A DNA stretch of 57,609 nucleotides from a candidate division WWE3 bacterium CG_4_9_14_0_2_um_filter_35_11. Its GTDB lineage: Bacteria; Patescibacteriota; WWE3; 2-01-FULL-39-13. The stretch spans positions 1 through 57,609 of the forward strand of contig PFSJ01000018.1 of NCBI GenBank assembly GCA_002789015.1, read 5' to 3'. How positions within the stretch are numbered: the stretch's first letter is position 1; the number at the start of each line of letters is the position of its first letter. The translations under genes and the position numbers were made by a program. Positions 22,181 through 57,540 of this stretch are shown one piece after another. The notes under the pieces were generated by a model. It was given only the letters and a program-made list of their open reading frames with translations. It ran no database searches and was not told the DNA's origin.

Positions 22181-23362
22181 ATGAAATTTGTCGTAGTTAT
22201 TCCTACTTATAACGAAAAAGAAAATATTAAAAGAACTATTAACGCTTTGCAGTCTTCGTTTAAATCGATTCTGGGTCATGAAATGCATATACTTGTTACT
22301 GATGCGAATTCTCCAGATAAGACAGCAGATGAAGTTCGTGATTTAATAAAACAAGATTCTAATATTCACCTTATTGTTGAAAAGGAAAAAAGAGGTTTGG
22401 GCGTTGCTTATTCTGGTGCTATGAATTATGCATTTGATGTTATTAAAGCTGATTCTGTGATCACTTTTGATGCTGATCTTTCACACGATGCAAAAAAGAT
22501 TCCTGAGTTTGTAAAAGCGATAGAAGATGGAGCTGATTTCGTGTGTGGAACAAGGTATAAAAAAGGTGGAGGCATTCCGCCAGAATGGGGAATACACAGG
22601 AAACTTTTGAGTAGGATTGGAAATCTTTATGCAAAAGTTTTATATCTCGAAAGCGGAGTTACAGATTTTACATCTGGATATAAAGGTTTTACAAAAAAAG
22701 TTTATCAGAAAATTAGAGATAAGATTTCAGTACACGGTGGATATACTTTTGCAATTTCCACTAATATAGAGCCAATTCGAGAAGGGTTTTCTGTTTCTGA
22801 AATTCCATATCATTTCGTGGATCGTGTAAAAGGGAAATCCAAAATGAAATCAGAATATTTTTTTAATGCATTTTTGTTTGTTACGAAAATAAGAATCTTG
22901 GACTTTTTTGCGTCTAGGTTCGGAAAAGTTTTTGTAGCAGGTGGTGTTGGCGCAGTTTTGCAACTTGTTACATATGGAGTAGTTTTTCATCCAGTGATAG
23001 AGTTTTCAAACGTATTTAATTTAGCATTTGATTCGTTTTTATTTGGTGTAAAAATTCATCCAAGATTTTTATTATCACAGTTTCTAGCAATTGAGGTAGG
23101 TGTTGCTTCTTCTTATTTGGCAAATAATTACTGGGCTTTTTCAGACAAGAAAAGGTCTGGTTTTAAATTGTTCACTGGTTTTTTTAAGAACAATACAATT
23201 ATCGCAGGTGCAATATTGATACAGCTTGTAATTGGTCAGTCTTTAGCGTTTTTATTTGGATCAGGCATTTTAAGAAACTATGTGTATCAAGTTGTTGGCA
23301 TTTTAGTCGGGCTTTTTTGGAATTTTCATTTCTATAAAAAAGTTATTTGGAAGTCAAAATAA
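22181..23362 (+). CDS. GT2 polyprenol-phosphate mannosyl/glycosyltransferase (DPM1/Ppm1-like) fused to a GtrA-like 4-TM domain
   Basis: VVIPTYNEKENI, TDANSPDKT, FDADLSHD, GTRY. The C-terminal 150 aa has GtrA-like helices (VFVAGGVGAVLQLVTYGV ... NNYWAF). Confidence 0.85.
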   Translation: MKFVVVIPTYNEKENIKRTINALQSSFKSILGHEMHILVTDANSPDKTADEVRDLIKQDSNIHLIVEKEKRGLGVAYSGAMNYAFDVIKADSVITFDADLSHDAKKIPEFVKAIEDGADFVCGTRYKKGGGIPPEWGIHRKLLSRIGNLYAKVLYLESGVTDFTSGYKGFTKKVYQKIRDKISVHGGYTFAISTNIEPIREGFSVSEIPYHFVDRVKGKSKMKSEYFFNAFLFVTKIRILDFFASRFGKVFVAGGVGAVLQLVTYGVVFHPVIEFSNVFNLAFDSFLFGVKIHPRFLLSQFLAIEVGVASSYLANNYWAFSDKKRSGFKLFTGFFKNNTIIAGAILIQLVIGQSLAFLFGSGILRNYVYQVVGILVGLFWNFHFYKKVIWKSK

Positions 23363-23364
23363 TA

Positions 23365-24126
23365 ATGAAGCAAACTTACATTTCGATTGTCATGCCTGCA
23401 TATAATGAAGAGCAGAGAATTAGTAAGTGCTTACTTTCTATAAATGAATTCATGAAGACGCAAGATTATGAATATGAAGTAATTGTTTCAGACGATGGAT
23501 CTACAGATAAAACTATAGCAATTGTTGAGGAATTTATGCATGAATGGAAATCACTAAAGATTATAAAGAATAAGCACAAAGGGAAAGCACCTGCAATTAT
23601 TTCCGGTGTTTATGCATCTAACTCTAAATTTACTTTGCTTACAGATGTTGATTTGTCTGTTCCTATTAATGAGCTTCCAAAACTTTTAAACTGGGTTGAC
23701 GAGAAGGGTTTTGATGCTGCGATAGCAAGCAGAGAAGGAGTAGGTGCAAAAAGAATTAATGAGCCACTTTCAAGGCATATTATGGGAAGGGTTTTTAATC
23801 TTTTAGTTCAATCCCTTGTTTTACCTGGAGTTAATGATACTCAATGTGGTTTTAAACTTTTTAGTTCTGATGTTATTAAGACTGTTTTTAAACATACGAT
23901 TTTATATGGTGTTGATGATGAAGAAATAAAGGGTGCAAAAGTTTCTGCATTTGATGTGGAATTGTTGTACGTCGCAAAGCTTCTTGGATACAAAATAAAA
24001 GAAGTTCCCGTAACTTGGACGTATAAAGACAAAAGTAAAGTTCATAATTTAAAAGATTCATATTATAATGCGAAAGATGTAGTCAGAGTTCGTTTAAATA
24101 GTTTGAAAGGTTTATATAAAAAATGA
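23365..24126 (+). CDS. GT2 polyprenol-phosphate glucosyltransferase-like (ALG5/DPG-synthase-like)
   Basis: ISIVMPAYNEEQRI, SDDGSTDKT, TDVDLS, DTQCGFKLF. I prefer the ATG at 23365 to the track start at 23347. Confidence 0.8.
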   Translation: MKQTYISIVMPAYNEEQRISKCLLSINEFMKTQDYEYEVIVSDDGSTDKTIAIVEEFMHEWKSLKIIKNKHKGKAPAIISGVYASNSKFTLLTDVDLSVPINELPKLLNWVDEKGFDAAIASREGVGAKRINEPLSRHIMGRVFNLLVQSLVLPGVNDTQCGFKLFSSDVIKTVFKHTILYGVDDEEIKGAKVSAFDVELLYVAKLLGYKIKEVPVTWTYKDKSKVHNLKDSYYNAKDVVRVRLNSLKGLYKK

Positions 24127-25439
24127 AAATCACTTTAATTGGAACGGGATACGTAGGCCTAGTATCTGGAGCAGTTTTTGCAGATTGGGGACATGAAGTT
24201 GTTTGTCTTGATATAGATCAAAAAAAGGTAGACAAGATTAAAGACGGAATAATGCCAATATACGAAGAAGGATTGGAGGAATTAGTTAAACGTGTCCAAG
24301 CAGAAGGCAAATTTGTCGCTACAACTGATTATGAAATGGCAGTTAATCATGGTGAGCTTATTTTTATTTGTGTTGGAACTCCAAGCAACGAATCGGGTGC
24401 TGCTGATTTGAGCTATGTTTTTTCAGCTGCTGAATCAATTGGAAAATACATGAAGGAAGGCGAATACAAAGTTGTAATAACAAAAAGCACAGTTCCTGTA
24501 AAAACTAGTGAAAAGGTTAGTGAACATATTAAAGTTGGAGCTGGTTCAAAAAAGGTTGATTACGATGTTGCATCAAATCCTGAATTTTTAAGAGAAGGAA
24601 CTTCTATTTTTGATGCGAATAATGCAGATCGTGTTGTTATTGGTTCAGGTTCTGAAAAAGCGTTGAATCTACTTGAGTCTTTATATGCTGGCTTAAATAC
24701 AACTATTGTTAAAACTGATCTTGCAAGCTCAGAACTTATTAAATATGCAGCTAATGCATTTTTAGCAACAAAGATTTCTTTTATAAATGAGATTTCTCAA
24801 ATTTGCGAAAGAACCGGAGCTGATGTTAAATCCGTTGCAATCGGTATGGGTTTAGATAATAGAATTGGGCCAAAATTTTTAAATGCTGGAATTGGGTATG
24901 GTGGATCTTGTTTTCCAAAAGATGTAGAAGCTTTGTATAGGACAAGTAGTCAAAATTTGTATGACTTTAGACTTTTGCGTGGAGTTATGGATGCAAACGA
25001 GAGACAGAAAATTTATTTTATGAATAAAATTTGGGATAAATATGGAACTAATCTTTCAAAATATACATTTGGAATTTTAGGCGCCGCGTTCAAAAACGAT
25101 ACCGATGATACAAGAAAATCAGTTGCAATAGAAATAATTAAGATCCTCCGCGGCGCCGGAGCTAAAATGAAATTGTTTGATCCAGCCGCAATGGAAAATG
25201 CAAAAAAAGAGTTAGGCAATGATTACATTACATACATGGAATCAGCTGAAAATTCTTTTGAAGCAGTAGACGCTATAATAATTTTAACCGAGTGGAAAGA
25301 ATTTGCGTCTTTGGATTACGAAAAGCTTTCTTCAAAAATGAAGGGAAAAGTAGTTTTTGATGGAAGAAATTTGCTTGATCCAAAAGAAATGAAAAAACTT
25401 GGATACGAATATTTCGGTATCGGAAGACATAAAGTTTAA
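24123..25439 (+). CDS. ugd: UDP-glucose 6-dehydrogenase
   Basis: GTGYVGLVSG Rossmann motif, NPEFLREGT, GYGGSCFPKD (catalytic Cys). 438 aa. Confidence 0.92.
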   Translation: MKITLIGTGYVGLVSGAVFADWGHEVVCLDIDQKKVDKIKDGIMPIYEEGLEELVKRVQAEGKFVATTDYEMAVNHGELIFICVGTPSNESGAADLSYVFSAAESIGKYMKEGEYKVVITKSTVPVKTSEKVSEHIKVGAGSKKVDYDVASNPEFLREGTSIFDANNADRVVIGSGSEKALNLLESLYAGLNTTIVKTDLASSELIKYAANAFLATKISFINEISQICERTGADVKSVAIGMGLDNRIGPKFLNAGIGYGGSCFPKDVEALYRTSSQNLYDFRLLRGVMDANERQKIYFMNKIWDKYGTNLSKYTFGILGAAFKNDTDDTRKSVAIEIIKILRGAGAKMKLFDPAAMENAKKELGNDYITYMESAENSFEAVDAIIILTEWKEFASLDYEKLSSKMKGKVVFDGRNLLDPKEMKKLGYEYFGIGRHKV

Positions 25440-25446
25440 AAAAAAT

Positions 25447-26439
25447 ATGAAAATTTTAGTAACCGGAGGTGCAGGCTATATCGGATCGCATACGGTTTTG
25501 GAGCTTTTAAATGCAGGACATGATGTAGTGGTTTTTGATTCTTTGGAAAAGTCGACTTTAAAAAACCTCGATGAGATCAAAATAATGACAGGAAAGAATA
25601 TTTCTTTTATGAAAGGAGATCTTCTTTCATATGATTTAGCTTCGCTTCTTAAGGAGCAATCTCCAAATGCCATCATTCACTTCGCAGGTTATAAAAATGC
25701 AGGAGAGTCGGTTAAGGAGCCTTCCAAGTATCACAGGACAAACGTTTATGGGACTTTTTTACTCTTAGAGGCGATGAGGGAAACTAACGTCAATAAGATT
25801 GTTTTTTCTTCGTCATGTTCGATTTTTGGAAATCCTGAAAAATTACCTATTTCAGAAGACTTACTTCCAAATCCAATTAGTGCATATGGAAAAAGCAAAT
25901 TAATGGTTGAATATATGCTAAAGGATTATGAAATTGCATATGGAATTTCATCAGTAGCTCTAAGATATTTTAATGCAGCGGGTGCGCATGAATCCGGCAA
26001 AATCGGTGAAGAAGTAAAAGCAACTGGAAATATTATTCCTTTGATTATGGAAAACCTTCTTGGTCATAGATCTGGTTTTACTTTATTTGGAGATAAATTT
26101 AATACACCCGATGGAACACAAGAAAGAGACTATGTTCACGTAATGGATTTAGCAAATGGGCATTTGAAGGCATTAGAAAAATTAGAGTACTCCGAAGGAT
26201 TTTTCTTTTACAATCTTGGTACGGGAACTCCTTCAAGTAACAAAAAGTTAATTGAGCTATCAGAAAATATTTCTGGCAAAAAACTTGCATATGAGATTTC
26301 AGGGCCAAGAGCGGGAGATCCTGATTTTGTTTATGCAGATCCTAAAAAAGCAAATACAGAATTAGGTTGGACGCCAAAATATTCAATTGAAGAAATCATA
26401 AAGGCGGCTTGGAATTGGCATTCGAAGAATCTTTCTTAA
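25447..26439 (+). CDS. galE: UDP-glucose 4-epimerase
   Basis: MKILVTGGAGYIGSH, SSSCSIFG, YGKSK (YxxxK), DYVHVMDLA. The ATG at 25447 gives the canonical N-terminus. Confidence 0.92.
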   Translation: MKILVTGGAGYIGSHTVLELLNAGHDVVVFDSLEKSTLKNLDEIKIMTGKNISFMKGDLLSYDLASLLKEQSPNAIIHFAGYKNAGESVKEPSKYHRTNVYGTFLLLEAMRETNVNKIVFSSSCSIFGNPEKLPISEDLLPNPISAYGKSKLMVEYMLKDYEIAYGISSVALRYFNAAGAHESGKIGEEVKATGNIIPLIMENLLGHRSGFTLFGDKFNTPDGTQERDYVHVMDLANGHLKALEKLEYSEGFFFYNLGTGTPSSNKKLIELSENISGKKLAYEISGPRAGDPDFVYADPKKANTELGWTPKYSIEEIIKAAWNWHSKNLS

Positions 26440-26788
26440 TTCCTTTTGTAATTATCGCCAAGAATACACTTCCCCAACCGACGATAAAAAATCCAAGAGG
26501 TAGTAGTTTTTGAAATGTATGAACAAGTATTGATCTAAATCCTGCATCTTCATTTTCAAGGGATAAAGATTCTAATGTTTGGTTTTGAAGTCCTTCTATT
26601 ATATGTTTGTCGTATTCAAATCCAACTAAAAGTGTCAAAAATCCAACTAACAATAGGGTTGCAAATCTAGAAGGTTTATATAGCAAAAGTCCAAGTGCAA
26701 TTAATGCCCCAATAAAAAATGCGATTGCATATTGATTGTGCGCGAATGTTAAAAAAGCTGTGTTAAAAAGACTTTGTTTTAATCCCAT
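26396..26788 (-). CDS. hypothetical small membrane protein
   Basis: 130 aa with about 4 TM. Its 3' end overlaps galE by 44 nt in convergent orientation. Confidence 0.35.
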   Translation of the reverse strand: MGLKQSLFNTAFLTFAHNQYAIAFFIGALIALGLLLYKPSRFATLLLVGFLTLLVGFEYDKHIIEGLQNQTLESLSLENEDAGFRSILVHTFQKLLPLGFFIVGWGSVFLAIITKGIKKDSSNANSKPPL

Positions 26789-26812
26789 GAATTTAGTTTA
26801 ACATTAATGCAA

Positions 26813-28606
26813 TTATATTTTTTTGAGTTTTCGAGCGAGCATTTCTGTTTCTAATAGAAGATCTTGGATTTCTTCGATGCCTTTTTGCCAAAAGTCTTTT
26901 TTGGAAATATCAATTCCTAAATCCATAAATATATCTTGAGGTGATTTGGAAGTTCCCGCTGACATGAAGATTTTCACTTTGCTTATATAGGAATTATCAC
27001 TTTTCACTTGGTTTTGAAGAGATTTTGAAATTAAAAGGCCACTTGCATATGAATACACGTAGAAAAATGATCTAATGTGGCTCCAATATACCCACCAGTT
27101 TTCAGATCCTTTCATCTTTTTCACATAACTTCCCATGTAAGATTTCATATGTTTTGAAAAAATTTCGCCAATTTTTTCTTTTGGTAAATATCCATCTTTT
27201 CTAAATTGTAAGTGGAGTTCCTGCTCGAATTTATAACATGCAACTTGTCTAAAAATTGTGCTTACGTCATCGTTTAGTTTCATCATCATTAAAGAAAGCT
27301 TTGTCCCGTCATCACACGATTTAAGAAGTTCATCTGTGACAAAGTCTTCCATGAATGTGCTTGCGACTTCAGCAGTTGAAAGAGGAGTTCCAAAATTCAA
27401 ACCATTTTGTGATTTTTTTATTAACTCGTTATTTATTCCGTGGCCTAATTCATGCGCAAGGGTTAATACGTCTTGCAATTTGTTGTCGTGATTAAGAAGT
27501 ACAAATGTCGGTTGATTAATTGTTCCGTGTATGCAAAAAGCACCACTATGTTTTCCCTTATTCGGAAATACATCAATATTTCCATCTTCTAAAAATTTAT
27601 TAAAGATTTCTGAAAACTCTGTATCTAAATTATTAAATGTGGTTTTTACAAGTTCGACTGAATTTTCAAATGTATATTCTTTTTGGAATTCTCCATATGG
27701 AACATTTCTCTCGTAATATTCAAGTTTTTTTTGTGAAAATAGTTTTGCTTTTAACTTGTAGTAATCTTTTGATATTTGGAAATTATCTGAAACAGATTTA
27801 ATCATTACATCTACAACTTCACTTGAAATGTCATCGCTAATGTGTCTGGCTAAATCCGGTCTATCAATTTTTCTAAGTTCATCATTAATTTTTTTATCTT
27901 GCAAAATAGAATTAAATTCATGTTCTGCAATTTCTGCATATTTGCTTTGAATTTTATTAAATGCTTTTGCGGAATCTTTTCTTACATCTTTATTGACGCT
28001 GTTCATTTGGCTTGATATTTCAGAAATGTTTTTTTTAATTTTCTTTTTAGTTTTTTCATCCAAAACAATTGCTTCCTCTTTTGACAAAAATTCTGACGTC
28101 ATCTTTACCCAGTTAGAATGTGATGTTTGTGATTTTAAATTCAAAATTTTTTCTTCTGGTTCAGAAAGTAAATATTTAGCTTCAACAAAAAGACTTTCTA
28201 AAAAATGTTTATATGGTGATAACAATTTTGATTCCAGAAATGTTTTTTGAACTTCTTTTGAAATCTTTGCGATTCGCATAGTGAAAAACTGCATATCGTT
28301 TGAAATTTTTGTTTCGAAATCCGTGATTTGGTTAATCTTTGCTTTAACATTTGAATCTGTCTCATCAAGTGCTGATTTTAAAGAAAAATAATATCCAACA
28401 TTGTTTTCGCCATAATTATTTTGCCAATTTTCAAAATCTATTAATGCTTTATATAAAACTTCTGGATTTGTAAGATACTCGGTGCTTCCTTCCCATTTTG
28501 AGATGAATGCGTTTGTCGCCTTTCGAAGATCTTTAAGTTGTTTTGAAATTAGTTCGTCATTTTCTGAATCCAATAATTGTTTTAAGTTCCATGAAGTTTG
28601 ATACAT
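26813..28606 (-). CDS. pepF: M3B oligoendopeptidase F-like zinc peptidase
   Basis: HELGHG zinc motif followed by TAEVASTFMED, about 600 aa. The likely start is MYQTSWNL (28606) rather than the track start at 28720. Confidence 0.8.
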   Translation of the reverse strand: MYQTSWNLKQLLDSENDELISKQLKDLRKATNAFISKWEGSTEYLTNPEVLYKALIDFENWQNNYGENNVGYYFSLKSALDETDSNVKAKINQITDFETKISNDMQFFTMRIAKISKEVQKTFLESKLLSPYKHFLESLFVEAKYLLSEPEEKILNLKSQTSHSNWVKMTSEFLSKEEAIVLDEKTKKKIKKNISEISSQMNSVNKDVRKDSAKAFNKIQSKYAEIAEHEFNSILQDKKINDELRKIDRPDLARHISDDISSEVVDVMIKSVSDNFQISKDYYKLKAKLFSQKKLEYYERNVPYGEFQKEYTFENSVELVKTTFNNLDTEFSEIFNKFLEDGNIDVFPNKGKHSGAFCIHGTINQPTFVLLNHDNKLQDVLTLAHELGHGINNELIKKSQNGLNFGTPLSTAEVASTFMEDFVTDELLKSCDDGTKLSLMMMKLNDDVSTIFRQVACYKFEQELHLQFRKDGYLPKEKIGEIFSKHMKSYMGSYVKKMKGSENWWVYWSHIRSFFYVYSYASGLLISKSLQNQVKSDNSYISKVKIFMSAGTSKSPQDIFMDLGIDISKKDFWQKGIEEIQDLLLETEMLARKLKKI

Positions 28607-28750
28607 GATGTTATCCATTGTATCAACAAATACTATATAATGATCCACATGAATGTTTTGCATGTAATTAAAAATGGTGAAGACGCAGACTACAATCTTC
28701 AAAAGCTTGTTAATATCCAAACGAAATCTTTAAAATACAATATTTCCGTT

Positions 28751-29461
28751 ATGACAGTTAGAAAGGCTTTATTTAGTGCATCAATCAGGAAGTTCTTTGG
28801 CAGGCCATTTGATGCTATTCATGTTCACGCTAGAACAAGTAAGTTCAATAAACTATCAAAAAATGTTATTAATCAAGACATTTCCGATTTTTTTTTGAAA
28901 AAGGAATTCTATGCTGATTCTGAATTTCAACTTTTATTAAATAAAGAAATTCTTTTTTATTATTCTGATGGAAATCAAAAAGCAGTAATTAGCCTTATTG
29001 AATCAATAAAATATCTTTCGTCTGAATACACTTTAAGAATTATAAAAAATATTCCCGAAGCAGATTTAAAAGCATTTAAGGAATTAATTGAAAACCTCAA
29101 TATCAAACACAGAGTTAGTTTTGGTTTATCCAGTGAAAATTTATCAATTCGCGATTTAGCGAAAGCATATAAAGATTCGAGATTAGTTGTATTTAATTCC
29201 ATTGGCACAAATCTGAAAATGAAAATAGTAAAAGCATTGGCATGTGGAATTCCAGTTATAGCATTTTCAAATGAAAAATATTTAGAAATTCCAGGTCTGA
29301 AGTTTACAGAATTACAGGGGCCAAAGGCACTCGCAAAGAAGATTAGAGATATCGTAGAAGATGATTTTTGGGTCGATATTGAAAGTGTTTATAATACGTA
29401 TAGCCTTGAATCACTCGCTGAGTCTCTTGATAAAAAATACCAGGGTTTGAATAATAATTGA
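28751..29461 (+). CDS. truncated GT4-like protein (N-domain largely missing); possibly degenerate
   Basis: It retains FDAIHVH (the end of a GT-B N-domain) and a C-domain-like LVVFNSIGTNLKMKIVKALACGIPVIAF. It lacks the first ~90 aa seen in the neighbouring GT4s. The start is uncertain. Confidence 0.4.
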   Translation: MTVRKALFSASIRKFFGRPFDAIHVHARTSKFNKLSKNVINQDISDFFLKKEFYADSEFQLLLNKEILFYYSDGNQKAVISLIESIKYLSSEYTLRIIKNIPEADLKAFKELIENLNIKHRVSFGLSSENLSIRDLAKAYKDSRLVVFNSIGTNLKMKIVKALACGIPVIAFSNEKYLEIPGLKFTELQGPKALAKKIRDIVEDDFWVDIESVYNTYSLESLAESLDKKYQGLNNN

Positions 29462-29482
29462 ATTACGCATTATAATGAATTT

Positions 29483-30628: not shown

Positions 30629-30630
30629 TT

Positions 30631-35214: not shown

Positions 35215-35233
35215 ATCAATTCTTAAAATCTTA

Positions 35234-35272: not shown

Positions 35273-35290
35273 ATTTCAGTTCCTGAAATC
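35272..35290. terminator. 8-bp stem / 3-nt loop hairpin at the convergent gene junction (candidate weak terminator)
   Basis: GATTTCAG ttc CTGAAATC, followed by TTTGT on the + strand. It overlaps the stop codon of the minus-strand GT-C gene. Confidence 0.3.
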
Positions 35291-39237: not shown

Positions 39238-39241
39238 TAAT

Positions 39242-42848: not shown

Positions 42849-42881
42849 CGTGTATACTTCAAGAAAGTTTTTTAATCTATT

Positions 42882-49943: not shown

Positions 49944-51124
49944 AAATATTATTTCAATCGCGAGTAGATCTTTATAATCCAAGAGGTGGCGATACATTTC
50001 AAATTGAAAAAACAAAATCCGCAATTGAAAAACTTGATCCAAATATAAAAATTGATATTTCATTAAATGTTCATGAAAAGAATATTTCTGATTATGATAT
50101 TGTTCATCTTTTTAATATAGATTGGGTTTGTGAAACTTATATGCAAGCAAAATTTGCAAAGGATCATCATAAGCCGCTTGTTATTTCAGCTATACATCAT
50201 TCATACAAAGAAGTTTTAGATTTCGAAAATTTTGCAAGATATGACATAAGACGAATTTATAATCTTATTGTGAAAAGCCAGCCATTAAGAGATGTTGGCA
50301 AAAATGTGTATCGTAGTTTTTTCAATAGAAAAAAGCTGTACCCGACAATTTTGCAAGTTTTAATGGGTATAAGAAATCAGCAGAGGAAAATTCTTCGCAT
50401 GTCAGATATCGTTTTAGTTCAAACTAAGCAGGAATCTAAAGATTTGATTACTGATTTTGGCGTATCTGATTTTAAATCGGAATTAGTCGTAAACGGCGTA
50501 GATGCTGATATTTTTAATAATGCTTCAAGATCTCCGTTTCAAAAGTTTTTTATGGAAAAATATTCAGTTGATATTTCTAAAAAGAAGGTTTTGTTGAATG
50601 TTGGAAGAGTTGAACCACGAAAAAACCAATTAAATTTAATTAAAGCTTTTGAAATGTTAAAGGAATCGCAAAGTTTTGATGGCTATATTTTAATTTTTGT
50701 AGGAGTTCTCTCAGAACGAAGTCCAGAATATATTTATAGGTTTAATAGTGAAATTAAAAATCATGAAGACATTTTTTATGTTGGAGCTTTACCTCAACAG
50801 ATGTTAGCTTCCGCAATGTCACAAGATGGAATTTATGTTCATCCAAGTTGGTTTGAAACAACAGGCCTTGTTTCTTTAGAGGCTACTTTAGCAGGTATGA
50901 CTCCAGTTGTTTCTGGCGATCGTGTTAAAGAGTATTTGGGTGATTATGGCTATTATTGCGATCCAAAAAGCCCCGAAAGTATAAAGAATGCTATACTAAA
51001 AGCGAGTGAAAGCTCGAAAAATACTGATGTATTAAGAAAGCGTATTCTTCGTGAATTTACTTGGGATAATGCGGCTTTACAAACTATTTTTGTTTATAAA
51101 AGCTTGTTATCTAAATCAAAATAA
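49940..51124 (+). CDS. GT4-family glycosyltransferase
   Basis: NVGRVEPRKNQLNLI, PSWFETTGLVSLEATLAGMTPVVSG. 394 aa. Confidence 0.8.
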   Translation: MKILFQSRVDLYNPRGGDTFQIEKTKSAIEKLDPNIKIDISLNVHEKNISDYDIVHLFNIDWVCETYMQAKFAKDHHKPLVISAIHHSYKEVLDFENFARYDIRRIYNLIVKSQPLRDVGKNVYRSFFNRKKLYPTILQVLMGIRNQQRKILRMSDIVLVQTKQESKDLITDFGVSDFKSELVVNGVDADIFNNASRSPFQKFFMEKYSVDISKKKVLLNVGRVEPRKNQLNLIKAFEMLKESQSFDGYILIFVGVLSERSPEYIYRFNSEIKNHEDIFYVGALPQQMLASAMSQDGIYVHPSWFETTGLVSLEATLAGMTPVVSGDRVKEYLGDYGYYCDPKSPESIKNAILKASESSKNTDVLRKRILREFTWDNAALQTIFVYKSLLSKSK

Positions 51125-54100
51125 ATGGATTACATAATGCTCCTCCCAGCTTTAGCAATTTTCATACTGTCTTTTATTTTAGGAATCAAAAATTTAAGAA
51201 TTTCTTTTCTACTTTTAATAATTTTGACGCCTTTAGTTCATAAAGAGTTATTTAGCCTTGGTGGAATTTGGGATTTGCTCCCTATTAGAGTTGCCTTCGG
51301 TGGTATCGCTTTATCTTCTGTTTATCATTTTTTTGTTTGGGCAAAAAAAGCAGGTTACAAAAGATTTTTACATTCGAGTTTAGAGGCTTTGAAAAAAGAT
51401 CCATTTTTAGTTTTGCTTTTATCTTTGTGGCTGCTTCGACTTTTATGGATCAAAAAATCAGCTTCTTTTGACGAAAGTTTTAAACTGTACATTTTTTATT
51501 CTTCAATTGTTGGCATTTATTTTATTTTTAGAAATTTATATGAAAAGCATGGGTTGAAATTTATAAGAAAGTCTATTGATCTTTATTTAGCCATGGGCTT
51601 TTTTGCGGCCTTAATTGCTGTTTTGCAATTTTATTTAAGGATTTGTTGCAGGTTTAGCGTTGGAGGAGTTTGGGTTGTCCCAGGTTATACTCCTCGTCTC
51701 GGCTCGACTTTTTGGGATGTAAATCATTTTGGCGGTTATTTAGTAACGATGATTCCTATTTTATTTGCAATGTTTTTCATGAAGCACAAAAATAGGTTTG
51801 CTAAATTTTATTACCTTTTTTCAGCATTTTTCCTGTCTGGAATTTTATTTTTCACTCAATCTAGAAGTTCGTGGATGGGACTTGCGGTTGGACTTGGTTT
51901 ATCCTTATTCATATATTATTTTTCAAGTTTAAAAAAGATTTTATATTCGTTTGCGATACTTGTATTAGTCGGAATTGTAGGACTTTTATCGTACACAACA
52001 TACAAACATATTTCCATAAATGAAAAGGTTGCTTCTTTTATGCACTACAGACTTGATTCTACTGACACACATATGCTTCTTTTAGACGGCGCAAGTGAAG
52101 TTTATTTTGATAACTTTTTGATTGGTGCTGGGTATGGAAATTTTGATCACGCATTTAGAGGTACGCCAATATCGGATATCTATTTTAATAGGGAGCCAAA
52201 ACTTAAAGAGATGAAAGTTCCACCTCATAGTGTGTGGGGCGAAGTTTTAGCAGAAACAGGATCAGTAGGTATGACTTTATATGCACTTTTTGCAGGTCTT
52301 ATTTTGGCAAGCCTTGTTGTTTCAATCTTTACGTCTAAATCAAATGATGTGAAATATTTAGGCACTGGTCTTCTTGGTGGCGCCGTTTCCATATTTGTTG
52401 CTGGACTATTTTATTCTTACAATATGGAATTTTATTGGATTTATCTTTTTATATGTATCGGGTTTTCTATTATGACAATTGGTAAGAATCGGAATTTACC
52501 TTATGTTCTAAATTGGTGGTCTAAAAATCCGATTACACCATATTTGATAATCTTGCCTATTTCAGCTTTTTATATTTTCATAAGACTTGGTTCTACGACC
52601 TTAATTGATTGGGACGAAGCCATTTATGCAAAAGTTGCAAAAAATATTGTTTTATCTAACGATTGGTTGACTTTGCATTGGACGGACATGAAAGACTATT
52701 GGTTTGAAAAGCCACCATTTTATATGTGGCTTACGGCTTTAGCATTTAAGATTACAGGATTTAATTCATTCGGTGCAAGAATAGTTTCTGCCACTTTCGG
52801 GATTTTTGGAATAATGGCAACATATAAATTAGGAAGTAAACTTTACAACAAACTAACAGGTATTACTGCATCGTTGATTTTGTTATCAACCGCTCATTAT
52901 TTGTACTATTCACGAAATGGAATGTTAGATGTCACAGCAACATTTTTTATTGTGTTGTCGATATTCTATTTTTATAGAGGGCTGTCGTTGAGCGATAAGC
53001 GAAACGCAGCCCTCATAAGCTGGCTCCTTTCGGGAGCCAGCATCGGCTTCGCCGTTATGACAAAGGGAATCATTGGTTTTATACCACTGCCAATTATTTT
53101 TATTTATTTGTTGGTTTTAGATATAAAAAATCTCAAAAAATATTTGAAACCATTTTTATTCATTGTAATTGGTATTTTATTAATAGCAGGGCCATGGCAT
53201 ATTTACTCATTGATTAAATACGGGAATGATTTCTGGGATACATATTTTATTGATCACATGATTGGTCGTGGACTTTCTGGTTTTGGTCACGAGAAACCGG
53301 TTTTGTGGTTTTTAGATGTAATAAGGACTTCATTTAGAATTTGGATTCTGCCACTTTTTGGTGCTTTGGTTTTGCTTCCATTTTTTGATAAGGATAGAAG
53401 GCAGTATTATCTTCTTCTGATTTCTACTTTTTTTGTTTTAATTTTCTTTTCGGTATCAAAAGATAAATTGCAGTGGTATATAATGCCGATTTATCCGTTC
53501 ATTGCTATTTTGTCTGCACGTTTTATAGAAAGATCTATATATATTCTTAATTCATTTTTAAGAAGTGAAATAAGGTTTGATAATAAATACTCAAGAATTT
53601 TATTAGTATTTTGTGCTTCTTTAGTTGCCATTTTCTATGTAGTAATTATCCGAGATAAAGTTTATTTGTCCGATTTCAATAAGGACAAGGTCGCATTGGT
53701 AGAGATAAATAATAAGAATTATCCAATTGAAGACTATCCAGATCGAAAATTATATTTCAGTAGAATTGAACCTCCTGTGTTGCGTTTTTATAGCGATCAT
53801 GTTGTTAAGTCAGTTGATGAGCCAACTATTTTAAGAATGATAGACGATGCCGGGCCTTTAGAAAACTATAGCTTTTTGGTTCCAGATTCGGTCTATTATA
53901 AATTGCAAAGTAAGGGAGGCAGGATTAAGGCTCCACTAGTTTTAGACATTAAAGGTACGTCTGGAGGTTGGGTATTATTAAAATCTGTTTCTAGGGTAGA
54001 GCTATTGAGATCTCAACTTGAAACGCTCATGTCAAGACATAAGACATTTATTGATAGGTTGATATTGGGCGAAAAATTAACACTACTCGAAAAGATGGCG

Positions 54101-54199
54101 TTTGATGAAATTAATATAGAAATCGCTGATGTATCAACTAAGCTTACGAATTATGGGTATCCACCAGACCCTATAGAAGATCCTTTTTATGTTAAATAA
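51125..54199 (+). CDS. fusion protein: O-antigen-ligase/Wzy_C-like N-terminal half + ArnT/PMT_2-like GT-C C-terminal half + soluble C-terminal domain
   Basis: N half: FTQSRSSWMGLAVGLG and PPHSVWGEVLAETGSVG (Wzy_C-like). From about aa 465: LIDWDEAIYAKVAKNI...WFEKPPFYMWLTALAF...GARIVSATFGIFGIMATYKLG...GFAVMTKGIIGFIPLP (ArnT/PMT_2-like). 1024 aa. Confidence 0.7.
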   Translation: MDYIMLLPALAIFILSFILGIKNLRISFLLLIILTPLVHKELFSLGGIWDLLPIRVAFGGIALSSVYHFFVWAKKAGYKRFLHSSLEALKKDPFLVLLLSLWLLRLLWIKKSASFDESFKLYIFYSSIVGIYFIFRNLYEKHGLKFIRKSIDLYLAMGFFAALIAVLQFYLRICCRFSVGGVWVVPGYTPRLGSTFWDVNHFGGYLVTMIPILFAMFFMKHKNRFAKFYYLFSAFFLSGILFFTQSRSSWMGLAVGLGLSLFIYYFSSLKKILYSFAILVLVGIVGLLSYTTYKHISINEKVASFMHYRLDSTDTHMLLLDGASEVYFDNFLIGAGYGNFDHAFRGTPISDIYFNREPKLKEMKVPPHSVWGEVLAETGSVGMTLYALFAGLILASLVVSIFTSKSNDVKYLGTGLLGGAVSIFVAGLFYSYNMEFYWIYLFICIGFSIMTIGKNRNLPYVLNWWSKNPITPYLIILPISAFYIFIRLGSTTLIDWDEAIYAKVAKNIVLSNDWLTLHWTDMKDYWFEKPPFYMWLTALAFKITGFNSFGARIVSATFGIFGIMATYKLGSKLYNKLTGITASLILLSTAHYLYYSRNGMLDVTATFFIVLSIFYFYRGLSLSDKRNAALISWLLSGASIGFAVMTKGIIGFIPLPIIFIYLLVLDIKNLKKYLKPFLFIVIGILLIAGPWHIYSLIKYGNDFWDTYFIDHMIGRGLSGFGHEKPVLWFLDVIRTSFRIWILPLFGALVLLPFFDKDRRQYYLLLISTFFVLIFFSVSKDKLQWYIMPIYPFIAILSARFIERSIYILNSFLRSEIRFDNKYSRILLVFCASLVAIFYVVIIRDKVYLSDFNKDKVALVEINNKNYPIEDYPDRKLYFSRIEPPVLRFYSDHVVKSVDEPTILRMIDDAGPLENYSFLVPDSVYYKLQSKGGRIKAPLVLDIKGTSGGWVLLKSVSRVELLRSQLETLMSRHKTFIDRLILGEKLTLLEKMAFDEINIEIADVSTKLTNYGYPPDPIEDPFYVK
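52977..53041. other. twin GC-rich hairpins inside the ArnT-like half of the fusion gene
   Basis: Hairpin A (52977-53014): outer GAGGGCTG/CAGCCCTC, inner CGTT/AACG and GC/GC. Hairpin B (53019-53041): GCTGGCTCC tttcg GGAGCCAGC, a 9-bp perfect stem. By hand count 39 of 65 nt are G/C. Confidence 0.85.
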
Positions 54200-56300
54200 A
54201 ATTTCTAAATATTTAATTTATCTGTTAGTAATCTCAATTCCATTTACGCATAAGGAAATGTTTTCGATTTTTGATCCTGATCTTGTTATTTCAAAGTTTT
54301 TTTTAATTTTAGTTTCTGTTTTGGGAATATTTTATTTCTCAAAAAATTATAGTTTATATTTAAAAGATAAATTGTTTGTGTTTCTCTCCTTGATTGTCCT
54401 TTTTCAACTGTTAAGCCTTCTTCAAAGTCGCGACATTATGAATTCGATTAGAATGATATTTTTTCAAGGAGCGATTTTATTTTCATATCCAACATTTAAA
54501 GAATATATAATTTCAGAAAAAGGGAGTATCTCGAGGTTGGTCAATGTTTATAAATACACATTTTTATTTGTTTTTGCGTTTTTACTTTATCAAATGTATT
54601 TGCAGGAAACAAAAGGCATTGCAACAGGTGGAGTTTGGCCAGTCCCTGGATATCCAACAAGGTATGGTTCTGTATTTTGGGATGTAAATCATTTTGCGGC
54701 TTATCTTTCATCTTTATTTTTTATTGTTTTGGCAAGTTTGTTGGCTACAAAAAAGCGGGCGGGAAAATACTTTGATTTTGTGCTAATTATCCTAATTGGT
54801 ATTTCGCTATATTTTACAAGCTCAAGAAGTGCAACGATCGGATTTGCATTTGGACTTTTATCGTTCATGTATATTTATATTGGAATTTATAAAAAGATTA
54901 GATTTAAATTTGGAACATTTACTTGGGCCGGAATTGCTATAACTTTTGTTACATTACCTTTGTCTATTTTATATCTATTTCAGGATATAATTAGGCAATC
55001 ATTTTTATATAGATCTGTATCATTTTTTTCTCATCTTTTTTTAATGAAAGTTGGAATTAATGTTGGACTTGAAAACTTTTTGTTTGGAATAGGAACGAAT
55101 TCATTTCACGCTTATTTTCATACATCAAAGTGGGCAAATGCTTATTACTATATAGATAAAGCGGCATTAAGTTATAAGTTGCCACTTCACAATTTATGGC
55201 TTGAGGTCTTTGCCGAAACTGGTGTTTTTGCATTAATTTGCTTTATTTTGTTTTGGGTTTTGTTACTTTACATGCTTTCTAGATCAGTTTCGGCAAAGAC
55301 CCTAAATCTTACTTCAGTCGGTTTTTTTGCAGGTATAATTTCATTTTTAGTAGGTGGGGTTATGTATTCATATAAATCTGAATTCTTTTGGATTTACGTC
55401 GTGATTGCGTGTGCTTATGTAACGTATCACTTCAAAAATATTGATTTAAAACTGCCGACATTTAATCTACCGACACTTTATTCTTTTGCTACTTATGTTT
55501 TTATAGGGGTCTCTTTTTTGTTGCCACTTTTTTATCTTATGTCTCCTATAACTTATGATGAGATGTTAATAATTTATTCAGAAAAAAGTCTGTATTTTTT
55601 AGATTTGTTTAGATATATTTTAGGAAATTTTTCGTTTACGGATAGATCTTTTTCTTTGATTTTTTATATCGGTAGCATTTTACTTTTGTTCGGAATCTTT
55701 AGAAAGACGTGCAAGGGAAAAAGAGCACTTGTTTCAACGGCTATTGCTTTTAATTTGATTAATATTTTTGTTCCTGGTGTTTATGTTTCAACGAAATGGA
55801 TTGTTTGTTTTTTTGTTTTAGTTCTTATGTCGTTTGGAATGAAGTTTTTGAAGCTTACGGGTCATTTTGTTTGTCATTTGAAGTGGGCAAATAAATCAGT
55901 TTATGCGTTTGTTTTGATTTTGTCTTTTTTGCTAGCGATGTTTTCTGCAAATTCATATAGCAAGAAGTATTCGTATGATAGTGATTTGTCTTTTTTGCTT
56001 GAGCTTGCATCGAATCGATTGCTTTTTGAGAAGTCTTCTATTTGGGTTGATTCAAGCGTTGATTTGCCTTTGGCTCATTATTATTGCGATTCTATGAGTA
56101 AGAAGGATGGTGTTTTTAGCCTGAATTCATGTGATATTAATGTTTTGAACAAGAACGCTATTTCTGTCGCAAATGCTCCAAAGCTAATTATTATTGGCAA
56201 GTCTGATTTTATTGATAAGATTTCTATTCTCGGCGATGAGTTTCATCATGGCGAGAATTATTTAAAAAGCGGCGAGTATATGATGTCGGTTTTGGATTAG
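54189..56300 (+). CDS. O-antigen-ligase/Wzy_C-like polytopic membrane protein with extra C-terminal TM and soluble region; paralog of the N-half of 51125..54199
   Basis: GGVWPVPGYPTRYGSVFWDVNHF (compare GGVWVVPGYTPRLGSTFWDVNHF), FTSSRSATIGFAFG, PLHNLWLEVFAETGVFA. Confidence 0.65.
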   Translation: MLNKISKYLIYLLVISIPFTHKEMFSIFDPDLVISKFFLILVSVLGIFYFSKNYSLYLKDKLFVFLSLIVLFQLLSLLQSRDIMNSIRMIFFQGAILFSYPTFKEYIISEKGSISRLVNVYKYTFLFVFAFLLYQMYLQETKGIATGGVWPVPGYPTRYGSVFWDVNHFAAYLSSLFFIVLASLLATKKRAGKYFDFVLIILIGISLYFTSSRSATIGFAFGLLSFMYIYIGIYKKIRFKFGTFTWAGIAITFVTLPLSILYLFQDIIRQSFLYRSVSFFSHLFLMKVGINVGLENFLFGIGTNSFHAYFHTSKWANAYYYIDKAALSYKLPLHNLWLEVFAETGVFALICFILFWVLLLYMLSRSVSAKTLNLTSVGFFAGIISFLVGGVMYSYKSEFFWIYVVIACAYVTYHFKNIDLKLPTFNLPTLYSFATYVFIGVSFLLPLFYLMSPITYDEMLIIYSEKSLYFLDLFRYILGNFSFTDRSFSLIFYIGSILLLFGIFRKTCKGKRALVSTAIAFNLINIFVPGVYVSTKWIVCFFVLVLMSFGMKFLKLTGHFVCHLKWANKSVYAFVLILSFLLAMFSANSYSKKYSYDSDLSFLLELASNRLLFEKSSIWVDSSVDLPLAHYYCDSMSKKDGVFSLNSCDINVLNKNAISVANAPKLIIIGKSDFIDKISILGDEFHHGENYLKSGEYMMSVLD
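55205..55301. repeat. 17-bp perfect inverted repeat flanking a 63-nt segment inside the ligase-like gene
   Basis: GGTCTTTGCCGAAACTG (55205-55221) is the exact reverse complement of CAGTTTCGGCAAAGACC (55285-55301). Confidence 0.9.
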
Positions 56301-56320
56301 TTTAATATCGGATATTAAAC
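56300..56320. terminator. 21-nt perfect palindrome spanning stop codon to stop codon of convergent genes (candidate bidirectional terminator)
   Basis: GTTTAATATC g GATATTAAAC. It begins in the TAG of the + gene and ends in the CTA (TAG on the minus strand) of the - gene. The stem is AT-rich and there is no clear U-tract. Confidence 0.4.
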
Positions 56321-57540
56321 TACTTGCAATTTATTTCAAATACAGTAACAGTGTCAAATTTATCGGCAGAGAAGTTTTTGTTTGGTCTGCTCGCGATTAT
56401 TTCATCATTTGTATATTCCTTTATTAATTTTAGTTTAGGATCATATAATAAAAAGTTTTTCATATTTTTAGTAATTTGTTCTTTTTCGAGGTCCTGGTCT
56501 GTTTTAGGAACGTGATTTCCAAATACAGGGGAACCCCAACTTTCTGCCATAGCGACTTTTAGTTGAGGTGTAACGACTCCAGTTTTCATGAATTTTTGAA
56601 CATACTTTTGTCTGTTTAGTTCTTTTTCGTGGTAGAAGAGGTATTTGACATCAAGTTTGTTAGAAAGATCACAAAATAACTTTTCTCGTTCCACCAAATC
56701 TATTGGTATCAAGGCATTTTCACGCTTTAATATTATATCTTCTAAAAGTTTTGCGTCTCCTCTTGTTACGAGGTATGGATTTATGATTTCTATGTTTGCG
56801 TCGTATGTGTAAAGGTGGTCGGTATAATCTGCGCGTGATGGAATTTCAATATACTTAAGTGGAGATTGTTGCAAAGATGCTTGTTCCCGAAGCCATTCGT
56901 ATGGTGGAGTTGGCTCAATTGATATTAAATGTTTTCCAGGTATAAATTCAAAAATTGCGAGTGCGGAGATTGTGATTATCAGCAAATTCTGTTTAAGTTT
57001 TTGATGCGATTTGTTAATGAATGATTTAGAAATTAAATGTTCAAGTCCAATAACTGCCAAGATTGTGTTTCCTATGAATACAAAAATTCCATATCTTGCA
57101 TATGCTCTAAATTGTGGCAAAAAGTCATAAATAAAATGAGAGGGGAAGTATATCTTGAAATTATTCAAGCCAATATATGGCGGCATGCTAAAAATAAAAG
57201 CAGTTACTGCAATAATCAAAAAGAAAGTGACATTAAATTTTTGGTCTCCTGTAATAGTTTTTTTAACATATGTTTGCCAAATTGTATAAATTGATAGAGC
57301 TATAAGTGTATAGCCCAAAAACAAAGTATGTTCTTTTGGGAAAAACGGTTCGGTTAAATAATACGGAGGATGTTGCCAAATCCAGAAGTTTACACGAACG
57401 GCTAAATCACCAAAAACAGGGTGATCAATATCAGGAATCAAATAATTCCATGGCCTTGCCGAAAAAGCAAAGCGGTCGGAAGGGGATCGGGTGATCTCGG
57501 TTATTGGGATAAGTTGATTATTTATTTTATTCATATTCAA
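56320..57540 (-). CDS. hypothetical polytopic membrane protein with C-terminal soluble domain (possibly glycan-related)
   Basis: 406 aa with about 5 TM in the first half. No motif I can name. It ends the island in convergent orientation. Confidence 0.35.
   Translation of the reverse strand: MNMNKINNQLIPITEITRSPSDRFAFSARPWNYLIPDIDHPVFGDLAVRVNFWIWQHPPYYLTEPFFPKEHTLFLGYTLIALSIYTIWQTYVKKTITGDQKFNVTFFLIIAVTAFIFSMPPYIGLNNFKIYFPSHFIYDFLPQFRAYARYGIFVFIGNTILAVIGLEHLISKSFINKSHQKLKQNLLIITISALAIFEFIPGKHLISIEPTPPYEWLREQASLQQSPLKYIEIPSRADYTDHLYTYDANIEIINPYLVTRGDAKLLEDIILKRENALIPIDLVEREKLFCDLSNKLDVKYLFYHEKELNRQKYVQKFMKTGVVTPQLKVAMAESWGSPVFGNHVPKTDQDLEKEQITKNMKNFLLYDPKLKLIKEYTNDEIIASRPNKNFSADKFDTVTVFEINCK

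Follow-up and report, generated by a model that had tools for sequence, protein, structure and literature searches.

A conserved glycan locus of candidate division WWE3 with about ten predicted GT-C-type glycosyltransferases and a WaaL-like/ArnT-like fusion protein

The Patescibacteria, or candidate phyla radiation (CPR), account for much of bacterial diversity, are mostly uncultured and attached to other cells, and have a surface chemistry that is essentially unknown. Contig PFSJ01000018.1 (assembly GCA_002789015.1) of the candidate division WWE3 bacterium CG_4_9_14_0_2_um_filter_35_11 is a stretch of 57,609 nucleotides, which was analysed whole and is referred to here as the window. From position 22181 to its end it carries a block of genes for glycosyltransferases and other glycan enzymes. 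The complete genomes of relatives measure 878,109 and 945,287 bp, and the block, at least 35 kb long, would fill roughly 4% of such a genome; because so much of a small genome is devoted to it, its product is probably central to the life of the organism. What do these genes build, and on what? We propose, with moderate confidence, that the block is the main cell-surface glycoconjugate locus of this bacterium, combining a Wzx/Wzy-type lipid-linked glycan pathway with many outer-face additions that depend on polyprenyl-phosphate sugars. Pfam scans covered all 25 open reading frames (ORFs) from 22181 to the window end, and window ORFs were scanned if they had at least 100 aa.

The core of the locus is a two-domain membrane protein:

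51125-54199, plus strand: 1024-aa fusion of an N-terminal Wzy_C (WaaL-like) domain (62 bits, residues 233-386) and a C-terminal ArnT-like GT-C domain (PMT_2 74 bits, residues 529-691)

The Wzy_C domain occupies residues about 1-460 and the ArnT-like GT-C domain about 470-1024. A profile built from 28 diverse members of the family aligns to Cupriavidus ArnT (5ezm) with an E value of 4.7e-47, with the DExxYA, FEKPP and SKLxxYIxP motifs in register. The AlphaFold model (pLDDT 86.6, pTM 0.83) retrieves ArnT 5f15 in Foldseek at E 5e-15, with a TM-score of 0.69 on the target, and WaaL 7tpg at E 1.4e-5. The N-terminal half gives no sequence-level match to WaaL, and the link is made by the Pfam Wzy_C domain and by the fold. 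Since D497-E498, together with R247, H368 and further Arg and His residues of the Wzy_C half, are invariant across the 28 members, both halves look active. A first-pass annotation of the window had listed 51125 as a Wzy_C protein; that domain is present, and what had been missed is the fusion to an ArnT-like GT-C and its lineage-wide core role. The family forms 86 full-length clusters at 90% identity. In a set of 1.84 billion representative proteins, the best 150 matches include about 35 that span both domains when counted as representatives at 50% identity, and shorter or split forms also occur. Species-representative genomes hold 241 loci with the fusion, nearly all labelled WWE3 or Patescibacteria, and we found no paper mentioning a Wzy_C/PMT_2 fusion. 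In some WWE3 genomes the two domains appear to be encoded separately, by a Wzy_C gene and an ArnT-like gene (365 + 598 aa), or the protein seems to be broken into three (L086 9941-12902; L084 10143-12540; representative proteins P0314, P0323 and others), and a group of ~850-aa relatives covers profile positions 23-700 only. These forms could be natural, or they could be frameshifts or assembly errors; if real, the split forms would support functional coupling of both domains.

The surroundings of the fusion across the lineage were counted in 35 related loci, each at least 20 kb long, over the 10 kb to either side of the fusion gene. The window genes concerned, besides the fusion itself and the GT-C genes described below, are as follows:

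42882-44306, plus strand: Wzx-type flippase of the MOP family (Polysacc_synt_3 68.7 bits, Polysacc_synt 36.5 bits)
48816-49943, plus strand: GT4, the first core GT4 ahead of the fusion across WWE3 (Glycos_transf_1 104 bits)
49940-51124, plus strand: GT4, the second core GT4 (Glycos_transf_1 73.8 bits)
54189-56300, plus strand: second Wzy_C protein, 703 aa, with about 13 hydrophobic segments (Wzy_C 51.9 bits)

In 32 of the 35 loci the fusion gene comes immediately after homologs of the two core GT4 genes. Within the 10-kb spans, a Bac_transf phosphoglycosyltransferase is found in 30 loci, a DUF4012 protein in 29 and Wzx in 29, and the position of the flippase gene 42882 is kept in relatives. 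These counts tie the fusion to a lipid-diphosphate-linked pathway. Extra GT-C genes are absent from the span in 12 loci, number one in 15 and two to five in 8; the window has five, a GT-C density far above the local norm, and its subclade stands at the top of the range. The lineage-wide core is a Wzx/Wzy-type pathway around the fusion and the two GT4 genes, and the long GT-C array is the expansion of one subclade. The second Wzy_C gene, 54189, is likewise confined to that subclade (3/35 loci); its product is 32% identical to the N-terminal half of the fusion. Residues ~410-703 of 54189 contain about five further hydrophobic segments and a tail of roughly 115 aa, and this C-terminal half matches no family and no GT-C profile. 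At one related locus (L008 15242-17931) a small Bac_transf phosphoglycosyltransferase is followed by a 665-aa DUF4012 protein, neither of which is in the window; the DUF4012 protein may be part of the core pathway.

These counts also bear on a lipoglycan pathway of the mycobacterial lipomannan (LM)/lipoarabinomannan (LAM) type, in which the two core GT4s would glycosylate a membrane lipid, like PimA/PimB or the lipoteichoic acid (LTA)-anchor synthases, and the glycolipid, once flipped, would be elongated and branched outside by GT-C enzymes using GT2-made polyprenyl-phosphate sugars. Such a route needs no phosphoglycosyltransferase, and none lies within the window. One synthase resembling dolichol-phosphate mannose synthase (DPMS) together with many GT-C enzymes mirrors Ppm1 with PimE, MptA-C, Emb and Aft; PimE, AftA, AftB, AftD and Emb are among the fold matches. 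The core GT4s match the IagA/BgsA LTA-anchor, diacylglycerol glucosyltransferase, GlcNAc-phosphatidylglycerol synthase and MshA models, but these matches are far under cutoff and non-specific. The Bac_transf gene, moreover, stands beside the same core genes in those 30 relatives, and the mycobacterial scheme has no role for Wzx or for two Wzy_C domains. We consider a lipoglycan pathway quite unlikely.

How many GT-C enzymes does the locus encode? About ten polytopic proteins had been read as such in the first pass, on the strength of acidic first-loop motifs (GDE, IDEP, WDE, DWDE and NDD) that are indeed present, and the number was upheld by three classes of evidence, namely Pfam PMT_2 or PMT above gathering score, profile comparison with hhalign, and an AlphaFold model searched with Foldseek. 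The candidates other than the fusion are the following:

31895-33652, plus strand: GT-C, first-loop motif GDE (PMT_2 54.0 bits)
33643-35214, plus strand: GT-C, first-loop motif IDEP (PMT_2 68.2 bits, PMT 39.6 bits)
35276-36982, minus strand: GT-C (PMT_2 29.8 bits)
36922-38529, plus strand: remote GT-C, about 11 hydrophobic segments (PMT_2 22.2 bits, sub-threshold against a gathering score of 26.1)
39242-41308, plus strand: DUF2079 polytopic protein, probable GT-C, with a ~295-aa C-terminal outer domain (DUF2079 96.8 bits)
41301-42848, plus strand: divergent GT-C by predicted structure, first-loop motif NDD, no Pfam or NCBIfam match
44275-45717, plus strand: GT-C, first-loop motif IDEP (PMT_2 45.2 bits, PMT 43.9 bits); orthologs in L011, L013, L017 and L020
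45683-47251, plus strand: GT-C (PMT_2 40.1 bits, PMT 38.3 bits); orthologs in many WWE3 loci
47251-48819, plus strand: GT-C, first-loop motif WDE (PMT 68.2 bits, PMT_2 58.8 bits)
56320-57609, minus strand: C-terminal two thirds of a 586-aa polytopic protein running off the window, possible remote GT-C by profile comparison

PMT_2 or PMT scored above gathering threshold in seven proteins (31895, 33643, 35276, 44275, 45683, 47251 and 51125), and the hmmscan check that the first pass had proposed thus confirmed its inventory. We count ten GT-C proteins, these seven being firm and three otherwise supported (39242 by DUF2079, 36922 by profile, 41301 by structure); an eleventh, 56320, is doubtful. 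A crude hydropathy count gives 7-11 segments per candidate and ~18 in the fusion, and the first-loop acidic motifs across the array read GDE, IDEP, EWGD, NDD, IDEP, WDE and DWDE. In 31895, which has ~10 hydrophobic segments, loop 1 is '...FQGDEVNP', and orthologs occur in L017 and in OZ246395.1, the closed chromosome of a relative. The products of 33643 and 44275 are 33% identical, and those of 35276 and 45683 are 27% identical over 552 residues. The OZ246395.1 ortholog of 35276 has 534 aa and lies on the minus strand too, and the annotated start of 35276 is probably too far upstream. In place of 47251 that chromosome has a GT4. Since the GT-C paralogs share only 21-35% identity, the array appears to be old, and the same figure rules out a recent tandem duplication of its genes.

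Structure models were made for two proteins, the fusion and 41301, and the remaining paralogs were judged by sequence and profile. The 41301 model (pLDDT 89.8) finds only GT-C enzymes among its best 19 Foldseek matches in the PDB (STT3, ArnT, ALG12, PglB, Pmt4 and EmbC), although marginally, with E values of 1e-3 to 0.4 and TM-scores of 0.3-0.47; the structure searches suggested in the first pass thus led to GT-C enzymes for both proteins. PMT_2 is carried by 13 of 49 homologs of 41301, and N35 and D36 are invariant in the family. The gene in the corresponding position of OZ246395.1 was dropped as a detectable ortholog because its product has no BLASTP similarity to 41301; it gives a weak PMT_2 match itself. 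A profile of 36922 and its ortholog matches the fusion GT-C domain with 94.5% hhalign probability over 310 columns and the 44275 family with 93.2%. The DUF2079 protein 39242 has more than 360 homologs, mostly in Patescibacteria, with an invariant first-loop D42 in 'GKFDLGN'. Its profile matches the 41301 family at 81% over 214 columns, N-terminally co-linear, with other comparisons below 12%. A profile search of PDB sequences matched nothing, and a literature search turned up no paper mentioning DUF2079, which we take to be a member of the Pfam GT-C clan. The doubtful 56320 has no Pfam match. The full-length 586-aa protein is present in L089, and its family profile matches the fusion GT-C domain at 92.9% over 274 columns; a G-x-x-D-N/Q motif opens the proteins of this family, with no membrane helix ahead of the acidic motif. 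By family, the GT-C enzymes would be expected to use polyprenyl-phosphate sugar donors on the outer face.

What might supply these donors, and the cytoplasmic glycosyltransferases, is encoded mainly at the upstream end of the block:

22181-23362, plus strand: GT2 with a C-terminal GtrA/DPMS-type membrane domain, candidate polyprenyl-phosphate hexose synthase (Glycos_transf_2 97.8 bits, GtrA_DPMS_TM 33.2 bits)
23347-24126, plus strand: short DPMS/ArnC-like GT2, 259 aa, candidate second polyprenyl-phosphate sugar synthase (Pfam GT2 105 bits)
38536-39237, plus strand: short ArnC/GtrB/AglJ-like GT2, 233 aa, candidate third polyprenyl-phosphate sugar synthase (GT2 136 bits)
24123-25439, plus strand: UDP-glucose 6-dehydrogenase Ugd, with all three UDPG_MGDP_dh domains
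25399-26439, plus strand: UDP-glucose 4-epimerase GalE (TIGR01179 382.5 bits, cutoff 262.3)
28598-29461, plus strand: truncated GT4, C-terminal Rossmann half only (Glyco_trans_1_4 and Glycos_transf_1 at residues 116-256 only)
29483-30628, plus strand: cytoplasmic, nucleotide-sugar-dependent GT4 (Glycos_transf_1 123.5 bits, Glyco_transf_4 84 bits)
30631-31911, plus strand: GT4 (Glycos_transf_1 144 bits; NCBIfam matches sub-cutoff)

DPMS, ArnC and GtrB are in the top PDB matches of all three GT2 proteins, with DPMS or ArnC ranking first. The GtrA-fused 22181 aligns over its full length, membrane domain included, with the dolichol-phosphate mannose synthase of Pyrococcus furiosus (5mlz; residues 1-380 against 23-362, E 8.6e-24), and ArnC comes second. 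For 23347 the top relatives are DPMS 5mlz (6e-16), chondroitin synthase (7e-13), ArnC and GtrB sll0501; for 38536, whose gene adjoins the DUF2079 gene both in the window and in OZ246395.1, they are ArnC (3e-16), GtrB sll0501 (1e-15), chondroitin synthase and then DPMS (1.5e-12). A membrane anchor is seen in 22181 only, by the GtrA_DPMS_TM match and the DPMS alignment, and hydropathy finds no membrane segment in the two shorter proteins. None of the three comes near its NCBIfam cutoffs (PgfS, AglJ, ArnC, dolichyl-phosphate hexose transferase, PpgS): the top matches of 23347 are PgfS, ArnC and dolichyl-phosphate hexose transferase, and 38536 reaches 117.7 bits against the AglJ model, all under cutoff. 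Ugd scores 458 bits with the NCBIfam NDP-sugar dehydrogenase model, above cutoff, and 517 bits with the TuaD model, whose cutoff is 700. GalE is the sole locus protein above an NCBIfam equivalog cutoff; its PDB matches reach E 5e-83 in alignments that begin at residue 17-18, so its true start is probably about 16 codons downstream of the annotated one. With Ugd and GalE encoded here, the precursors on hand would include UDP-GlcA and UDP-Gal (or UDP-GalNAc). The NCBIfam matches of 29483 are all sub-cutoff (Agl16, BshA, PglJ). The truncated 28598 has no NCBIfam match and no counterpart in OZ246395.1, and is probably a GT4 remnant. Pfam and NCBIfam thus recovered everything the first pass had named here, that is, ugd, galE, four GT4 genes and a truncated copy, one Wzx-like protein, two Wzy_C proteins and three GT2 genes of DPM1/ALG5 type, one of them GtrA-fused, with the second GT2 now placed at 23347.

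The same enzyme families are known from protein O-glycosylation. PMT_2-type GT-C enzymes could modify Ser/Thr of secreted, S-layer or pilin proteins, like actinobacterial Pmt or Pgf of Streptococcus mutans; the Wzy_C domains would be O-oligosaccharyltransferases (PglL/WsaB-like) loading the Wzx-flipped glycan on protein, and the many paralogs would reflect many protein targets or linkage types. The matched Pfam families PMT and PMT_2 are protein mannosyltransferase families, the Wzy_C family includes protein O-oligosaccharyltransferases, PgfS is the top (sub-cutoff) NCBIfam match of two of the GT2s, and a GalE accompanies them, as it does in the Pgf system. For WWE3, glycoproteins or a glycosylated S-layer have been proposed by Kantor et al. 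(PMC3812714). However, the closest relative of the core GT-C domain, by structure and by sequence, is the lipid-modifying ArnT and not Pmt; the Pfam-scanned ORFs of the locus include no candidate acceptor, S-layer or pilin gene; and PMT_2 also covers the polymer-decorating GT-C enzymes GtlB, GacL and CsdD (PMC8035078). Protein as the general target is, in our judgement, an unlikely though not negligible reading.

Is the block one system at all? The first pass had described a contiguous, almost gap-free island forming one operon-like array. The block is in fact interrupted on the minus strand, and it continues past the window:

26396-28720, minus strand: M3 oligopeptidase F gene (Peptidase_M3 126 bits, Peptidase_M3_N) and a family-less 130-aa ORF, neither of them glycan genes

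Genes 35276 and 56320 are likewise on the minus strand. Neighbouring genes often overlap by 1-35 nt, with tight overlaps throughout 38536-56300, which suggests co-expression; the operon-like description keeps this much and is otherwise overstated. On the closed chromosome OZ246395.1 almost the same gene order is found at ~50% protein identity: the M3 gene, two GT4 genes, three PMT_2 genes, one of unassigned family, the GT2 and DUF2079 genes, a further PMT_2 gene, another unassigned one, Wzx, two more PMT_2 genes, three GT4 genes and then the fusion, Wzy_C and a 56320-type gene, with the peptidase gene in the same place. A survey of synteny had been suggested, and this chromosome and the 35 loci with their fusion-centred core provide one. 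Because near-identical order persists at such divergence, the block is a vertically conserved WWE3 chromosomal locus. The G+C content is ~32% throughout the window, being slightly lower in the block from 22181 to the end (0.29-0.34) than in the flanks (0.31-0.36); tRNA and Rfam searches of the window gave no match, and there is no integrase family among the Pfam-scanned window ORFs. A mobile island or horizontal transfer is ruled out by the flank-like composition, these null results and the synteny kept in a distant relative, and the word island does not apply.

An alternative is that the block holds several independent envelope-glycosylation systems, Gtr/Csb-type GT2/GT-C pairs and a separate Wzx/Wzy locus, which are mere neighbours with different targets. 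The unrelated peptidase gene that splits it, the three genes on the opposite strand and the resemblance of GT2 38536 and DUF2079 to a classical GT-A/GT-C pair are consistent with this, as is the occurrence of the core in other WWE3 genomes that lack the majority of the extra GT-C genes; several independent pairs are known in Bacillus subtilis and in Lactococcus lactis (PMC8035078). Independent neighbours do not account for an order that is kept nearly whole, peptidase gene included, or for the tight overlaps across 38536-56300, and three GT2s cannot pair one-to-one with ten or more GT-C enzymes. This alternative seems improbable to us.

The proposed glycoconjugate locus was set against several characterised systems. 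In the assembly of LM, LAM and arabinogalactan in mycobacteria and corynebacteria, as here, a DPM1-like synthase feeds many outer GT-C enzymes and GT4s prime inside; the window proteins show no sequence-level orthology to that system, whose genes (Ppm1; PimE, MptA/B/C, EmbA/B/C, AftA-D) are dispersed in a 4-Mb genome without Wzx or Wzy_C. More than ten GT-C enzymes take part in making these mycobacterial polymers, so the statement of the first-pass annotation that characterised pathways use one or a few does not extend to them. It does hold for Firmicutes and Gram-negatives (PMC8035078). There, the multi-component systems, such as GtrA/GtrB/GtrC of Shigella phages and CsbB/GtcA/YfhO, GtlA/GtlB, CsdAB/CD/EF and GacI/J/K/L of Gram-positives, follow a scheme in which a polyprenyl-phosphate sugar, once made by a GT2, is flipped by a GtrA- or Wzx-type protein, and a PMT_2-type GT-C with an acidic first loop adds the sugar outside (PMC8035078). 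The window has the matching GT2, flippase-type and PMT_2 families. Unlike those organisms, which have one to three scattered GT-A/GT-C pairs, it has three GT2s and at least ten GT-C enzymes in one locus of a ~0.9-Mb genome, and it lacks a separate small GtrA protein, with only the domain fused to 22181.

Likeness to the Arn pathway lies in the C-terminal domain of the fusion, ArnT-like (GT83) by alignment and fold, in the ArnC-like GT2s and in Ugd. Membership is ruled out by missing genes, as the window is without ArnA, ArnB, ArnD and ArnE/F; in addition, WWE3 has no lipid A and the ArnT-like domain is fused to Wzy_C. WaaL and Wzx/Wzy systems, including the tuaA-H operon of Bacillus subtilis, share with the locus the Wzy_C domain (in two proteins), the WaaL-like fold, Wzx, GT4s and Ugd, and the phosphoglycosyltransferase that stands beside the core in most relatives, though not in the window. 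They differ from it in that the lineage has no lipid A-core acceptor and the ligase-like domain is covalently joined to a GT-C. The teichuronic acid operon tuaABCDEFGH itself was rejected: TuaB, TuaC, TuaE and TuaG score 19-65 bits against cutoffs of 400-580, and among the window proteins the NCBIfam search matched neither TuaA nor TuaF. The lumenal phase of eukaryotic and archaeal N-glycan synthesis (compared through DPM1/ALG5; ALG3/9/12/6/8/10; RFT1; the oligosaccharyltransferase OST; and archaeal AglJ/AglS/AglR) likewise combines GT4 steps, a MOP flippase, GT2 dolichol-phosphate synthases, GT-C extensions and en bloc transfer. The fold matches include ALG9, ALG12, ALG3 and STT3, and the sub-cutoff ones AglJ, Agl16 and Agl23. 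The window has no STT3/PglB/AglB homolog, however, and transfer would fall to the WaaL-like domain; the two systems are alike in architecture and not through orthology. The first pass could map the array to no described pathway. This stands insofar as only GalE reaches an equivalog cutoff, but the modules do fit Wzx/Wzy assembly combined with multi-component transmembrane glycosylation.

In the glycoconjugate pathway that we favour, cytoplasmic GT4 enzymes would use nucleotide sugars to assemble an oligosaccharide carried by polyprenyl diphosphate, with Ugd supplying UDP-GlcA and GalE supplying UDP-Gal, and Wzx would move the lipid-linked product to the outer face, where the two Wzy_C (WaaL/Wzy-like) domains may polymerise the glycan, pass it to an acceptor, or both. 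In parallel, the three DPMS/ArnC/GtrB-like GT2s would charge polyprenyl phosphate with single sugars, and ten or so GT-C enzymes would add these one by one outside after the flip, with the lipid-linked glycan, the completed polymer or the acceptor as substrate. Because the fusion physically joins a WaaL-like and an ArnT-like active site, it would couple one transfer of a lipid-diphosphate glycan with one of a lipid-phosphate sugar, probably on the same acceptor molecule. Decoration of wall polymers by a GT2 synthase, a flippase and a GT-C is a documented paradigm (PMC8035078), and outer-face stepwise glycosylation, as suggested in the first pass, is the natural reading of the GT-C and GT2 families. 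Probable candidates for the acceptor are wall or secondary polymers, proteins of the surface or S-layer, and membrane lipids. Lipid A cannot be the acceptor, because WWE3 genomes, which are unusually rich in glycosyltransferases, have no genes for lipopolysaccharide (LPS) or lipid A (PMC3812714). The scheme starts from observed families, folds, motifs, conserved gene order and lineage distribution; its donors, step order and acceptor are predictions from family membership throughout.

Several points weigh against this proposal. The 57.6-kb window contains no initiating phosphoglycosyltransferase, either in the ORF scans or in a six-frame search with a WWE3 Bac_transf protein, and the scanned ORFs include no chain-length regulator or LCP-type ligase. 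With the peptidase gene and the three minus-strand genes in it, the block falls into several transcription units. Counting DUF2079 as GT-C depends on the 81% profile match and on its presumed clan membership, and the two short GT2 enzymes could be ordinary cytoplasmic GT2s acting on the lipid-linked glycan. Finally, no protein except GalE reaches an equivalog cutoff, so any donor sugar named for an enzyme is only a candidate.

A more specific form of the proposal, to which we attach only a small probability, draws on the parallel with the endoplasmic reticulum (ER) lumenal phase of N-glycan synthesis. A short lipid-diphosphate oligosaccharide made by the GT4s and flipped by Wzx would grow on the outer face one residue at a time, through as many as ten GT-C enzymes supplied by the DPM1/ALG5-like synthases. 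The fusion would then deliver it, with its ArnT-like domain priming or modifying a non-LPS acceptor and its WaaL-like domain ligating the glycan onto it. If this is true, the glycoconjugate could be a principal envelope component and a determinant of host attachment in a lineage reported to have neither LPS nor a complete peptidoglycan pathway.

Every domain discussed here belongs to a known family, and the richness of WWE3 and other Patescibacteria in glycosyltransferases has already been remarked in general terms (PMC3812714 for WWE3). Our literature searches found nothing specific on GT-C arrays, on PMT_2/ArnT proteins in CPR bacteria or on Katanobacteria glycosyltransferases. As far as we could find, three things are undescribed: the WaaL-like/ArnT-like fusion as a lineage-wide core, a single conserved locus with at least ten GT-C enzymes in a ~0.9-Mb genome, and the three predicted lipid-phosphate-sugar synthases that would serve them. 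With this locus, multi-component transmembrane glycosylation, so far known with one to three GT-C enzymes in an organism, would reach more than ten in a single array. For now a family-based prediction, the locus is an entry point into CPR envelope chemistry, and it offers practical handles in the lineage-wide fusion with its clear catalytic motifs and in GT2 and GT-C enzymes amenable to expression and assay. The WWE3 genomes themselves form a natural series from minimal core to expanded array along which genes can be related to glycan structure.

The first 22 kb of the window are housekeeping in character (serS, PAP2 phosphatase, uppP, secA, the suf operon, prfB, ftsEX and an M23 peptidase). 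The adjacent genes for a PAP2-family phosphatase and the undecaprenyl-diphosphate phosphatase UppP (BacA, 257 bits) at 2484-3811, ~18 kb upstream of the block, could encode the enzymes that recycle the polyprenyl carrier, of which the glycan locus would make heavy use. In the suf operon, the match of a 177-aa ORF at 12277-12810 to the SufBD core domain is confined to the C-terminal part (profile positions 94-232), and the ORF looks like an unusually short SufD. A promoter and terminator scan was uninformative, with counts equal to the level of shuffled sequence. The closest relatives of the window proteins are from candidate division WWE3 or unclassified Patescibacteria, and near-identical contigs occur in several groundwater metagenomes. 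Longer contigs show what lies past the window, namely the remainder of the 56320 gene and then a 1320-aa protein; beyond the corresponding point in a relative, more glycosyl- and methyltransferase genes follow. The minus-strand protein just past the window end (1316-1320 aa; L089 19258-21128, L009 8952-12902) has a weak DUF5667 match only. The closest relatives keep it beside their 56320-type gene, and it is possibly a large surface protein with a link to the locus.

Perfect palindromes lie within coding sequence at 47888-47928, 48965-49003, 49008-49037, 3525-3556, 11047-11074 and 31769-31796, with arms of 20, 18, 13, 13, 13 and 13 nt, respectively, the first two being the longest. Their host genes are GT-C 47251, GT4 48816 and 30631, uppP and sufB. 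They are outliers among 144 blocks of 400 nt, in which the longest arm is typically 5-7 nt, and they were not found in the orthologous genes of relatives. The palindrome with 18-nt arms is GC-rich despite the 32% G+C of the genome, and conserved protein sequence is kept across it. Contigs of five other assemblies start inside it and seven contigs read through, and the 172-kb contig of a related species ends ~40 nt past it. At the window end, positions 57491-57609 within the minus-strand 56320 gene, the 5' part of the gene exists in two versions. Upstream of the peptide RSPSDRF, one sequence is common to the window and L003-L005, and another, which gives the full 586-aa protein, to L002, L089, L090 and L092. 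No contig with the window's version reaches more than ~200 nt further. This divergence indicates two alleles or a variable junction, and reflects either strain-level mosaicism or a junction at the edge of the locus that is hard to assemble.

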